Assembly (NCBI GenBank): GCA_964106915.2
Contig: OZ066917.1
DNA from: Podarcis gaigeae
Taxonomy: Eukaryota
Length of the DNA: 64,000 nt
Reading direction: 5' to 3' (one strand)
The notes beneath the pieces were generated by a model. It searched no databases. It was not told the DNA's origin and worked only from the letters and a program-made list of their open reading frames with translations. How positions within the stretch are numbered: position 1 is the stretch's first letter; the number at the start of each line of letters is the position of its first letter. The translations under genes and the position numbers were made by a program. Positions 25,841 through 61,743 of this stretch are shown in pieces.

Positions 25841-25860
25841 CTATTCGCCAGTCTGTATTT
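25841..25860 (-). CDS. C3orf52: C3orf52 terminal exon
   Basis: TTCTTGTTTCTAAAG acceptor, phase 1, QIQTGE*; AATAAA on the - strand at 25017-25022. Confidence 0.6.
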
Positions 25861-27303
25861 CTTTAGAAACAAGAATATTATTACTTTTAAAAAGAAGAAA
25901 GAAAGCCATTGCTAAAACTAATAACTGATTGGCACATCTCCCCTAATTTATCTTCTCTAATTTTCACTCATCCACAAATATACAAACATATAACCAACTG
26001 TTATATATGTGCCATACATACAAACACAAACACACACACACACCACATAACCCAACACATACACACACAGCCTATTTCTGGATCATAAAGTTATTATCTA
26101 TGCAATATTTGATCAGACATAAAGGCCACATCCACACTGTACATTTAAAGCACTATTATACCACTTAAACAGCCATGCCTTCCCTCAAAAGAATCTTAGG
26201 GCCTGCACTTGTTTGAGCAGGTTAAGCAAGTGGTTATTAACTCCACTATGTAGAACCAATGACAATACAGTCATACCTTGGAAGTCAAATGGAATCCGTT
26301 CCGGAAGTCCGTTCGACTTCCAAAATGTTCGGAAACCAAAGTGCAGCTTCTGATTGGCTGCAGGAAACTCCTGCAGCCAATCATAAGCCGTGGAAGCCCC
26401 ATTGGGCATTCGGCTTCCAAAAATAGTTTGCAAACCGGAACAGTCACTTCCGGGTTTGCGGTGTTCAGGAGCCAAAACGTTTGAGAACTAAGCTATTCAA
26501 AAACCAAGGTGTGACTGTACTGTTGTTTTATATTCTGGGAGTTATACAACAGTAAGGGAATCAGAATATTCACAGAATCTGCATATAAGGTTGCATAGAG
26601 CAAAGTTGTTCCATTGGCACAAGAATGCATGCCTGCACAACAGGTCTTCCTTTCCCTGCATCCCCACCTTCAAATTTTCTCCAGAAGCTTGGAAGACACC
26701 CCAGAACAGATTAGGGTTGGCGGAGGCACATGAGGAAAGGGAGTCCCATTGTGCAGGTGTAAGTTATTGTGCTAATCAGATAACTTCCCTGGGTATATGC
26801 TACGGGAGTGAAATATTACAGAGAGGTTCATTCACTAAATACCCTTTCTAGAAAATTCACACTTTTAAAAATAAAGAGTACAGTTCTTCATTGCATGAGG
26901 TACTTACGCGTTATTGAAAGGGAAGTTGGATCAAGCGTCATGTTTGTGCAATCAGGTATATTCAGCCCATTCATTTCTTCCTTGTCATAAATATTTTGCC
27001 TTAAAATATTCATCACAAACCCTTCACTCATTCTAGACTTCATAAACTCTTCAGTCTCAGGCGGCACTGTGAACCTTAAAAGGTAGGATGCTGAGTTGTT
27101 TTCTTTACTGTAAGAAGGAAACATTGTGGGGATGAGAAGTCATTGGGTTATACACCTATTCTTCCCCCTACTTTTGATACACTTCATGAGGTAATGTGAT
27201 AAATGCACATTTGGGAGCAAAAAACAAAGAAAGTCTGGAGTGTTCTCCTCTGCATCAAAGGAATGTAAGCTGGCAGTATAAGAATAAGAATAATAAATAA
27301 TAA

Positions 27304-27347
<44 letters not shown>

Positions 27348-60200: not shown

Positions 60201-61034
60201 TTAACCGTGCCTCAGCAGGTCTAGTTTCATCAGCGGCATATCCCAAGTACAAAACCTATCAAATGAAATTTGAACCAAAATGTAGTCCTTTATATTTTCC
60301 ATAGGCAAACTCACACAATTCTGGACAGCTTCAGCTTGCAATATAAACGTATGCGATTTGGGGTGCATTAGGTCACTTGTGTAGGTCAAGTTAGGAATTT
60401 CTAGACTTCCACCAATGTAGATGAAAGAGAATGCAGGAGCTGAAAAGAAGGGAGGGGAAATATTAGCAAAACAAAAACAGGTTAGTTCGTGTGGGGGGGG
60501 GGAGGTTGCTTAAAAAGGCATAACTTCTGTATTAATAGGAAGACCCTTCCTTTTAATACACAACATCAAATCAAAGTCAACTACAAAATTTTATTCAAAA
60601 AATACTATCAGATGATCTTCCGTATTCAAATGGAAATCCACTTTCACTGGATTCAATTGAAGACACAACTATTGGATGACTCTGACTTTTGTCAGTGCCT
60701 GCTCATAATATTCTCAAGTGATCAAGAAGGTGTATGTAGGACTTTCTTGCACACACTATGCAAATGCTTAACTTTGAAATGTTATTGATTTTTATCTGTA
60801 TGTTTTCTAACCATTTTTTTAAAAGGTTCAAGCTAAATTCAGACCCAAGGGGCAACACTTTTAAATTATTTGGCTTTGCAGTTAGTGTAGAATTAGCAAT
60901 ATTTGCAAACCATAGATCCTGAGTACAGAGTGTTCCCCCATTGCATCAACTTTTTGCATTAGTGGAAAGCAGATTTGTTAAAGAAAAGCCACTCAGAGTG
61001 GCTGGGGCAATCCAGTCAGATGGATGGGGCTACA

Positions 61035-61076
<42 letters not shown>

Positions 61077-61743
61077 TTCAGCTCATAGATTCCTTTTTGT
61101 TGTATTGGGACCACTATCTAATGAGTTTAGGACAAAAAGACAAAAAACACAAGATTCTCATAGTGTGCCAAAACTAGTTGGTTATGAATATTTGTCATAA
61201 ACACGATACATCATTGGCAACCCGGAACTAAATAAAAACCCATTAAAAATAGTTTTGACATCAACCTGCTTGAAAAGCAATGAGGGCAACCTTTACATGC
61301 TTATAGAAATTAAAAGCTTGCAATAGTGACACTTACATAACGTATAGTACAGCACCAGCAGAATCACAGTGACAGTCAAGGAAATCACAGGTAACGTTTG
61401 TAAAAGACATCTTTTCCAGAAATGAAAATGCACTTTTTGGCCAAAAGAATGCTTTCGACTCGCAATATCTTCTTGTGAAGCCTGGCTGTGATGAAAAGGC
61501 AGACCCTGTTCAAGAAGGAAGGAAGGAAGGAAGGAAGGAAGGAATCGGCAAGCAAATCGAGGAAAATGATTCTGCCTTTGCTCAGCTGACAAGCGAATTA
61601 ATCGTTGCATTATTCATGAGCAATTTACAAGTGTGTTAGGAAACCAAATTGCAATTTCTTACCAGTCCAGAGAGAAACTGTGAGTCACAAGGAGTAGGTA
61701 TGCTGTATATAACAGAGAGGCGCCTGGATGGGAAAGACCTCAT
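40190..61743 (-). CDS. matriptase-subfamily type II transmembrane serine protease (ST14/TMPRSS7-like), 18 coding exons, 823 aa
   Basis: All 18 exons join in frame with GT-AG (2472 nt incl. stop): cytoplasmic, TM, SEA, CUB1, CUB2, 3 LDLa, activation site KRPR|IVGG, triad SAAHC / DYDIALL / GDSGG, S1 Asp (IDACQ). Confidence 0.93.
41277..41413 (-). CDS. TTSP exon 17
   Basis: [19 protein letters not shown]...[15 protein letters not shown]; phase 1 to 0. Confidence 0.95.
41901..42175 (-). CDS. TTSP exon 16 (catalytic Asp)
   Basis: [12 protein letters not shown]...DYDIALLEM...VQPICLP...CYVTGWG; phase 2 to 1. Confidence 0.95.
42645..42828 (-). CDS. TTSP exon 15 (activation site, catalytic His)
   Basis: [14 protein letters not shown]...WPWQASL...CGASII...SAAHCFQD; phase 1 to 2. 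Confidence 0.95.
43400..43820 (-). mobile_element. L2 LINE 3' fragment
   Basis: [37 protein letters not shown] plus shared 3' terminal motif. Confidence 0.8.
44615..44734 (-). CDS. TTSP exon 14 (LDLa-3)
   Basis: [36 protein letters not shown]; phase 1-1. Confidence 0.93.
44850..44985 (-). mobile_element. tRNA-Lys-derived SINE (Squam2-like)
   Basis: TAGCTCAGTCAGTAGAGCCTGAGACTCTTAATCTCAGG head with a degenerate T-arm, followed by a GAGTTGGACTAGATGAC LINE-like tail. Confidence 0.65.
46110..46223 (-). CDS. TTSP exon 13 (degenerate LDLa-2)
   Basis: [38 protein letters not shown]; six Cys, phase 1-1. Confidence 0.85.
46819..46923 (-). CDS. TTSP exon 12 (LDLa-1)
   Basis: [34 protein letters not shown]; phase 1-1. 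Confidence 0.93.
47957..49452 (+). mobile_element. young 5'-truncated L1 LINE
   Basis: Uninterrupted ORF2 C-terminus to 49172 with CCHC knuckle [20 protein letters not shown] at 49434, A-tail; exact 18-bp TSD GAGATCCAGTGTGGTATA (47939-47956 and 49453-49470). Confidence 0.92.
49817..49950 (-). CDS. TTSP exon 11 (CUB2 end)
   Basis: YCKPIGEG...[23 protein letters not shown]; phase 2 to 1. Confidence 0.9.
50730..50983. mobile_element. hAT-type MITE
   Basis: TAGGGTTGC ... GGCAACCCTA; TSD TATTGTGG / CATTGTGG. Confidence 0.7.
51141..51253 (-). CDS. TTSP exon 10 (CUB2 middle)
   Basis: [13 protein letters not shown]...[12 protein letters not shown]; phase 0 to 2. Confidence 0.9.
52029..52376. mobile_element. 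Tc1/mariner MITE with perfect TIRs
   Basis: CCATATTGGCCTGAATATAAGCC ... GGCTTATATTCAGGCCAATATGG (23 bp perfect) with TA flanks. Confidence 0.85.
52935..53032 (-). CDS. TTSP exon 9 (CUB2 start)
   Basis: [32 protein letters not shown]; phase 1 to 0. Confidence 0.93.
53933..54075 (-). CDS. TTSP exon 8 (CUB1 end)
   Basis: [29 protein letters not shown]...AYFQAVPKI; phase 2 to 1. Confidence 0.9.
54190..54230. repeat. (GA)n microsatellite
   Basis: Visible dinucleotide run. Confidence 0.95.
54265..55204 (-). mobile_element. 5'-truncated L1 with nested Sauria SINE
   Basis: Degraded ORF2 end ([20 protein letters not shown]); exact 17-bp TSD ATGGAGCAAACTTTTAA (54248-54264 and 55205-55221). Confidence 0.8.
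54380..54731 (-). mobile_element. Sauria SINE (Squam1), full length
   Basis: Head ...GACGCGGGTGGCGCTGTGGGTTAAACC, B box and tail; TSD GCATACCTTA (54370-54379 and 54732-54741). Confidence 0.9.
55233..55449 (-). CDS. TTSP exon 7 (CUB1 start, divergent)
   Basis: [38 protein letters not shown]...[22 protein letters not shown]; phase 1 to 2. Confidence 0.88.
57810..57842 (-). CDS. TTSP exon 6 (33-nt linker)
   Basis: TTTCAG acceptor, CAG|GTAAGA donor; [11 protein letters not shown]; phase 1-1. Confidence 0.78.
57938..58134 (-). CDS. TTSP exon 5 (SEA C-part)
   Basis: [18 protein letters not shown]...ITMELF; 197 nt, phase 2 to 1. Confidence 0.85.
59197..59264 (-). CDS. TTSP exon 4 (SEA middle)
   Basis: [22 protein letters not shown](S); 68 nt, phase 0 to 2. 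Confidence 0.87.
60315..60439 (-). CDS. TTSP exon 3 (SEA start)
   Basis: [41 protein letters not shown]; phase 1 to 0. Confidence 0.87.
60985..61076 (+). mobile_element. L2-derived 3' stub with (AAT)n tail
   Basis: AGCCACTCAGAGTGGCTGGGGCAATCCAGTCAGATGG motif then (AAT)n. Confidence 0.65.
61337..61505 (-). CDS. TTSP exon 2 (cytoplasmic + TM signal anchor)
   Basis: GLPFHHSQ...[28 protein letters not shown]; phase 0 to 1. Confidence 0.85.
61663..61743 (-). CDS. TTSP exon 1 (probable start)
   Basis: ATCATG start, [33 protein letters not shown], phase 0. Confidence 0.7.

Follow-up and report, generated by a model that had tools for sequence, protein, structure and literature searches.

Organization of the Locus

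We analyzed a 64,000-nt stretch of the lizard Podarcis gaigeae (contig OZ066917.1 of assembly GCA_964106915.2; "the window" hereafter means this whole stretch), focusing on the gene C3orf52, which encodes TTMP, and on the protease gene next to it. The window itself points to a lacertid lizard, TTMP exon 5 being 91% identical to that of Lacerta agilis. Three genes follow one another on the minus strand: an 18-exon protease (61743-40190) that we call ST14-like, TTMP/C3orf52 (34097-25841), and a gene with immunoglobulin (Ig) domains at about 10.6-13.7 kb. Only 6.1 kb separate the protease stop codon (40190) from the TTMP start codon (34097). The six TTMP coding exons (219 amino acids, aa) and the first six exons of the protease all have AG/GT ends, and their sizes and phases (Table 1) are exactly those given in an earlier reading made from the letters alone (the sequence-only reading), which had also correctly placed the two genes on the same strand about 6 kb apart.

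All five TTMP introns were bridged, with CT..AC ends, by contigs from four runs (the contigs being 90-99% alike), whose RNA nature is the tool's guess. Among the joints listed, introns 5, 4, 3, 2, and 1 were bridged in 3, 4, 4, 2, and 3 of the four runs, respectively; intron 1 was placed three bases shifted in the contig joints, with its length unchanged. A contig of run X9, which also holds spliced TTMP, covers the last exon of the protease; no run containing the protease was recorded as RNA. Such contigs cannot rank genes, and the lack of cover in two of the four runs over the bins holding this exon is no evidence on expression.

The intron phases are 0, 1, 0, 2, 1 in both six-exon models. 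For introns 3 and 4 the alignment columns coincide, for intron 2 they lie within 3 columns and for intron 5 within 2 columns of each other, and intron 1 lies in cytoplasmic sequence that cannot be aligned. With the phase frequencies that we assumed, five given phases would match by chance in about 0.5% of cases. These matches show only common ancestry within the family; they look like a family trait, since a phase-1 donor is present in human ST14 too, at c.598 (PMC5717823, accessible part). The residual similarity claimed by the sequence-only reading is real but weak for the whole proteins (local score 57 vs 32±5 for shuffles, reached by 0 of 1,000) and for the ectodomains alone (score 47, reached by 5 of 1,000); the FWK.C juxtamembrane match on which it partly relied is not kept by fish and shark orthologues of the protease. 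A duplication between the two genes at the DNA level was rejected, the six direct-repeat families of at least 40 nt being all intronic.

Table 1. Coding exons of TTMP/C3orf52 and of the adjoining ST14-like protease in the window.
Feature	Position	Strand	Length (nt)	Basis
TTMP exon 1, cytoplasmic	34011..34097	-	87	intron bridged by contigs
TTMP exon 2, juxtamembrane FWKCKLW and single transmembrane helix	32313..32436	-	124	exon model, structure model, contigs
TTMP exon 3, acidic stalk with almost invariant D75 and D77, plus strand 1 and helix of the SEA	30501..30658	-	158	exon model, contigs, stalk alignment
TTMP exon 4, SEA core with one-residue insertion common to ST14 and cyclostome genes	28521..28591	-	71	exon model, contigs, alignments
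TTMP exon 5, SEA C-terminal half, without G-S cleavage motif in this lizard	26908..27107	-	200	exon model, contigs
TTMP exon 6, coding part with stop; 3' untranslated region to at least 25028	25841..25860	-	20	exon model, contigs
ST14-like protease exon 1, cytoplasmic	61663..61743	-	81
ST14-like protease exon 2, transmembrane	61337..61505	-	169
ST14-like protease exon 3, short neutral stalk and SEA start	60315..60439	-	125
ST14-like protease exon 4, SEA core, short form	59197..59264	-	68
ST14-like protease exon 5, SEA C-terminal half, loop two residues longer than in TTMP/ST14	57938..58134	-	197
ST14-like protease exon 6, linker; second acceptor 6 nt upstream	57810..57842	-	33
ST14-like protease exons 7-11, CUB1 and CUB2	49817..55449 (55449-55233, 54075-53933, 53032-52935, 51253-51141, 49950-49817)	-
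ST14-like protease exons 12-14, LDLa-type repeats	44615..46923 (46923-46819, 46223-46110, 44734-44615)	-
ST14-like protease exons 15-18, RIVGG activation site; trypsin domain bearing AAHC, DIAL, GDSGGP	40190..42828 (42828-42645, 42175-41901, 41413-41277, 40348-40190)	-

Architecture of TTMP

The AlphaFold2 model of the Lacerta TTMP orthologue P0001 (46-row alignment, mean pLDDT confidence 74) exhibited one long helix and a ferredoxin-like domain of four strands with a helix layer, the strands and helices following the SEA order. Its best match among solved structures was the SEA domain of TMPRSS6 (entry 9nrc; Foldseek E 1e-7; Z 12.6, root-mean-square deviation 2.7 over 114 residues), followed by the SEA of MUC16, that of a TTSP (type II transmembrane serine protease), and other SEA domains; the top six rows of the VIA comparison were all SEA-bearing chains, with Z from 12.6 to 8.6. 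A broader TTMP sequence profile recovered TMPRSS6 at 1e-10, then MUC16, 2e7v, and TMPRSS11D, and the ESM Atlas returned SEA-bearing clusters at 0.93-0.95 for P0001. The SEA fold that the sequence-only reading had proposed as a check was thus recovered, with the SEA of TMPRSS6 as the closest structure. PF01390 is carried by 44 of 108 homologues and matched 30 of 35 aligned TTMPs at E<0.001; Lacerta TTMP scored 23.2 bits (E 8e-5), under the Pfam cut-off of 26.4. Whole proteins were needed, as none of four single TTMP exons was matched by Pfam. Some database entries are named "SEA domain-containing protein," and the SEA domain of TTMP is already known to automatic annotation.

TTMP has one transmembrane helix and no N-terminal signal peptide, and its N-glycan sequons, five of them in the ectodomain, are mostly C-terminal; a type II topology is predicted. 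Of 63 bony-vertebrate TTMPs, 61 end no more than 23 residues from the last strand motif of the SEA. No CUB domain was found in lizard TTMP, nor leftover CUB exons by tblastn around the gene, and neither LDLa repeats nor an S1A protease domain were found in the lizard protein or in any of the five ray models described below. Searches by tblastn for leftover CUB, LDLa, or protease exons around TTMP gave only chance-level hits below position 40000 (best E 0.2; best 1.9 in the reversed-window control), and these did not convince when inspected.

The matriptase SEA domain cleaves itself at a G-S-[VI] motif in the loop between strands 2 and 3. In lizard TTMP this loop reads FSKENNS and the motif is missing. 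A G-S-hydrophobic sequence is kept in 18 of the 63 TTMPs, the named keepers being ray-finned fish and none of the named tetrapods. Since neither the lizard nor any named tetrapod has this motif, amniote TTMP is likely a single uncleaved chain, judging from sequence (a SEA cleavage site of matriptase is mentioned in the accessible part of PMC5717823). The stalk between membrane and SEA, 20-24 aa long, is acidic, with on average 5.4 acidic vs 1.9 basic residues and with D75 and D77 present in 62 and 61 of the 63 proteins; this stalk and the SEA core are the features kept from fish to mammals. Two ectodomain cysteines appearing in amniotes, C101 and C200, could form a disulfide absent from fish TTMP.

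Ray Proteins With Two CUB Domains

A TTMP profile searched against 1.84 billion representatives gave 167 matches, of which the best 150 are considered here. The stingray protein P0282 (Hypanus, 465 aa) was matched with E 4e-31, accompanied by a Hemitrygon cluster mate, Narcine relatives (P0285), and a basking-shark fragment that NCBI names c15h3orf52. After the ray proteins came lamprey P0332 (1e-10, partial), sea-bream st14a (1e-6), and hagfish P0365 (3e-5); these best 150 of 167 matches included no full-length TMPRSS7 or orthologue of the neighboring protease.

By Pfam, stingray P0282/P0371 carry SEA and CUB, and the model of P0282 contains two CUB-like beta-sandwiches after the SEA. Its best whole-length fold match was TMPRSS6 (3e-23), for a model that leans on the full-length matriptases included in its alignment. 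P0282 can be aligned with matriptase stems as far as the end of CUB2 and terminates at the point expected for the start of the first LDLa, and neither IVGG nor GDSGGP was found in P0282/P0371. The ray proteins group with TTMP in the SEA tree with support values of 98/98; the ESM Atlas gave only 0.78 for P0282, a lead of no weight. The Narcine models P0285 and P0372 have only a CUB1-like part followed by unrelated tails, which could be further decay or model errors.

Since stingrays keep a transmembrane-SEA-CUB-CUB chain without LDLa repeats or protease domain, the descent of TTMP from a matriptase-type protease is near certain: almost without doubt, it is the product of a truncated gene retaining the membrane anchor and the predicted SEA, a descendant of the family and not a member protease. 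On this point the sequence-only reading, which had seen in TTMP a truncated TTSP, agrees with the fold, the profile, the intron positions, and the ray forms. By parsimony, the catalytic end would have been lost first and the CUB domains later, although independent losses are possible.

Position of TTMP Among the Matriptases

Two length differences in the SEA domain separate TTMP from the adjacent protease. The exon-4 span has 10 residues in 63/63 TTMPs vs 9 in 27/27 orthologues of the neighbor. The long form is also present in fish st14a, two zmp-type ST14, and the hagfish and lamprey proteins, and the extra residue appears derived because TMPRSS7, TMPRSS6, TMPRSS11D, 2e7v, and MUC16 all have the short form; exon 4 of human ST14 presumably measures 71 nt. 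The loop following this span has 10 residues, the ST14 length, in 49 of 63 TTMPs vs 12 in 27/27 neighbor orthologues. SEA-profile scores against TTMP were 65 bits for lamprey, 57 for st14a, 45 for hagfish, 40-41 for the zmp-type proteins, and 30 and 21 for TMPRSS7, while 13 neighbor orthologues obtained 13-28 and a mucin-type SEA 22. With hhalign, TTMP scored 106.5 without gaps to st14a vs 81.8 with two gaps to the neighbor.

The stem tree (SEA-CUB-CUB) separated the neighbor and TMPRSS7 from TTMP, ST14, and the cyclostome proteins with support values of 95/93 (92/91 under LG+G4), and none of the four best trees joined TTMP to the neighbor. The SEA tree was built without the shark fragment and the stem trees without the unrelated tail of the Narcine protein. 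Going by these sequence comparisons, the nearest full-length kin of TTMP is quite probably the ST14 branch and not the neighbor, so that the tandem duplication of the neighbor proposed by the sequence-only reading is disfavored as the origin of TTMP. Of the checks that it had set, the intron mapping gave the agreement described above, and the four best trees did not make the neighbor the sister group, although the AU tests given below left the pairing unrejected. A teleost ST14-type paralogue (zmp:0000001114-like; P0224, P0225, P0226) has the long stalk and exon-4 insertion of TTMP and is a candidate for the nearest full-length relative.

TTMP shares with matriptase/ST14 (st14a P0351, zmp-type P0224/P0226, hagfish P0365, lamprey P0332) the membrane anchor (of predicted type II topology in TTMP) and SEA, the latter alignable over 84 columns without gaps, the exon-4 insertion, the short FS-G-SV loop, and a phase-1 intron near the end of the SEA, which is where the human c.598 donor lies (PMC5717823, accessible part); ray TTMP also has the two CUBs. 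It differs by the acidic stalk, by the absence of LDLa and protease in any TTMP seen and of CUB in bony vertebrates, and by the absence of the G-S cleavage motif in tetrapods. With the neighbor it has in common the adjacency, the exon phases, and a homologous SEA (hhalign E 2e-10), but the neighbor is one residue shorter in exon 4 and two longer in the next loop, and has a neutral 11-aa stalk and the full catalytic chain. TMPRSS6 (matriptase-2), the best solved-structure match, and TMPRSS7 (matriptase-3), which belongs to the same gene array, both differ from TTMP by the short exon-4 form and the protease domain.

The Neighboring ST14-like Protease

The 18 exons of the neighbor encode an intact protein of 823 aa without internal stop, with the activation site (RIVGG) and the triad motifs (AAHC, DIAL, and GDSGGP); Pfam on its orthologues gave the chain transmembrane-SEA-CUB-LDLa-trypsin. 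Podarcis proteins agree with it at 817 and 815 of 825 positions. Exon 6 is preceded by two AG acceptors separated by 6 nt (57842-57848), which make it 33 or 39 nt long, and the upstream one may be in use because the Podarcis database proteins are 2 aa longer.

In the protease-domain tree, in which ST14 and TMPRSS7 were represented by fish only, the neighbor and its orthologues, with members ranging from shark to lizard, grouped by themselves (91/98) and separately from the ST14 and TMPRSS7 rows. This clade comprises sharks, lungfish, axolotl, turtles, crocodiles, birds, and lizards. Its existence and that of database models fusing TMPRSS7 to the ST14-like gene rule out that the neighbor is ST14 or TMPRSS7 itself; it is a separate third paralogue (e.g., XP_028581576) that databases label ST14 or TMPRSS7. 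The sequence-only reading had taken it for matriptase, but the ST14 disease link that it invoked belongs to a different gene. Five such fused models are known to us from the databases (P0113, P0109, P0447, P0123, and P0131, from two fish, two rattlesnakes, and one bird), the two fish models being judged from their sequences. The bird model continues into TTMP, so that the genes succeed one another as TMPRSS7, ST14-like, TTMP along a single strand. These fusions are probably annotation artefacts that record a tandem array; TMPRSS7 is syntenic with C3orf52 from gar to human, according to the accessible part of the literature.

In a word-index search with the neighbor, no mammalian orthologue was present among the best 120 of 188 matches, whose only mammalian rows were four unrelated proteases (45-50% identity over 64-70% of the query). 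Because the same search found fish orthologues at 47-59% identity yet none in mammals among the matches listed, the ST14-like protease was likely lost in mammals, a word-index search being no proof. The neighbor stalk (11 aa) contains no acidic residue, and its SEA loop reads FSEGxxG. As the G-S-[VI] motif is missing in 27/27 orthologues, this protease may not cleave its own SEA.

Possible Origin and Function of TTMP

The explanation that best covers these observations as a whole, to which we give a probability of about 0.6, is that TTMP is a protease-less matriptase remnant of ST14-branch origin that serves lipase H as a non-catalytic dock at the membrane. The TMPRSS7/ST14-like lineage and an ST14-type gene would have stood together in an old tandem array. 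At this locus, the copy of ST14 type would have lost its LDLa and protease exons before or early in the jawed vertebrates; the CUB exons would have disappeared from the TTMP lineage later, in the stem of the bony fish, and the G-S self-cleavage motif of the SEA in tetrapods. The transmembrane-SEA form is found from bichir to mammals. Even with a parent in the ST14 branch, a tandem duplication was probably at the root of the array, a far older one and at one remove.

GPIHBP1 is a small membrane protein with a Ly6/uPAR fold and a glycosylphosphatidylinositol anchor, whose acidic stretch docks a secreted lipase of the lipoprotein-lipase family. TTMP resembles it by its acidic stalk, a functional analogy only, the folds being unrelated. 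Docking of lipase H is a rather probable main function of TTMP, the conserved acidic stalk being the candidate dock: the uncleaved SEA on its D-x-D stalk would hold the secreted lipase H at the membrane, where it would make lysophosphatidic acid from phosphatidic acid for LPAR6, and in lizards this axis would act in non-hair epithelia. An interaction between TTMP and lipase H was reported by Malki (2020), as cited in the accessible parts of two papers, one of which cites it also for co-expression; C3ORF52 is grouped there with the isolated hair disease of LIPH and LPAR6.

Several observations weigh against this explanation. The approximately unbiased (AU) tests did not reject a sister-group relationship of TTMP with the neighbor (p 0.23 with the SEA alone, 0.135 with the stem) or with TMPRSS7 (p 0.134), and the grouping of TTMP with st14a obtained only 57/68. 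The split supported at 95/93 joins two long branches, as the tool warned, and the deep forks of the stem tree collapse when TMPRSS7 is removed; in the SEA-only tree the neighbor goes with ST14 and not with TMPRSS7 (84/83). Because the neighbor SEA evolves along a long branch, its profile scores are reduced irrespective of kinship, and raw identities to sturgeon TTMP are about equal (36% vs 34%). The trees were computed without TMPRSS6, tetrapod and shark ST14, and tetrapod TMPRSS7, and one indel can arise twice. In addition, the ray forms are gene models.

That TTMP would be a tandem copy of the adjacent protease, acting as its decoy or cofactor, draws on their adjacency on one strand, the five common phases with two introns in identical columns, the gene order that recurs in the bird fused model, the AU tests that leave the pairing unrejected, and run X9, with spliced TTMP and a contig over the last protease exon. 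Nevertheless, TTMP agrees with the ST14 branch and not with the neighbor in the two SEA indels and in the stalk, and the best trees place TTMP elsewhere; we thus regard this combined scenario as improbable. The decoy role proposed by the sequence-only reading is itself unsupported, having only adjacency for it. Matriptases meet inhibitors and substrates via their CUB, LDLa, and catalytic parts, which TTMP does not have, and TTMP persists in mammals with lipase H as its reported partner. Acting on the neighbor cannot be its mammalian function if the neighbor is gone there. The common hair phenotype could otherwise be explained if TTMP, being only a stem, regulated matriptase (ST14) in a dominant-negative manner or as a partner in trafficking, in line with its closest kinship to the ST14 branch and with the link of both human genes to hypotrichosis (PMC5717823 for ST14, accessible part). 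However, loss of ST14 causes ichthyosis with hypotrichosis (same source) and C3ORF52 belongs, in the accessible literature, to the isolated LIPH/LPAR6 hair disease. Our literature search also found no paper combining C3orf52 and matriptase, and such regulation seems very improbable.

With the same ancestry, TTMP could also be an escort for the folding or export of lipase H in the secretory pathway and not a surface dock. Its ectodomain, with the five N-glycan sequons, faces the lumen as well as the outside, and an endoplasmic reticulum location has been reported for human TTMP. SEA domains adjoining a transmembrane helix are usually found on cell-surface proteins, and the escort, although the chief alternative to the dock, seems unlikely to us; the accessible part of a review calls the exact role of C3orf52 unclear.

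A bolder formulation of the ST14-branch origin, which we consider only tentatively, is that C3orf52 might be a decayed sister that arose with ST14 in a whole-genome duplication, so that a single ancestral protease would have given rise to two genes of human hypotrichosis. It would have shed first its catalytic end, then its CUBs (the rays being half-way), then its cleavage site, while its stalk became an acidic dock that holds lipase H much as GPIHBP1 holds its lipase. The gene next to it would be a matriptase-type protease, so far undescribed, which sharks through birds retain and mammals have lost. ST14 and C3orf52 presumably lie in paralogous human blocks, 11q23-25 and 3q13.

The literature search found no paper combining C3orf52 with "SEA domain," nor any mention of the matriptase ancestry, the ray intermediate, or the non-mammalian paralogue, and nothing pertinent on the biology of TTMP or the evolution of the matriptase family; it misses most subscription journals, which may state the link. 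Loss of C3orf52 causes sparse hair in people. This disease gene of unclear function would gain a fold, an ancestry, and specific residues (the acidic D-x-D stalk, the SPALGRYF core, and the lost cleavage loop). The gene would also cleanly exemplify how a protease that sheds its C-terminal exons one after another ends up as an accessory protein without catalysis, an intermediate surviving in living species, although truncated protease paralogues are a familiar kind of thing, which tempers the surprise. Beside it, a conserved, intact, and uncharacterized matriptase-type protease of non-mammalian vertebrates is flagged behind its ST14 or TMPRSS7 labels.

Other Features of the Window

Downstream of TTMP, the Ig-domain gene (about 10630-13670, minus strand) has V-set and C2-set Ig exons and a transmembrane exon, and we take it to be CD200-like. 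Dispersed intronic repeats at 27351-28100, 35189-35522, and 43408-43750 are 60-91% identical and heavily covered by transcript contigs. On the plus strand, positions 4813-8796 contain stop-free frames of 299 and 1028 codons that by eye resemble the endonuclease and reverse transcriptase of a long interspersed nuclear element, possibly a young and intact one.

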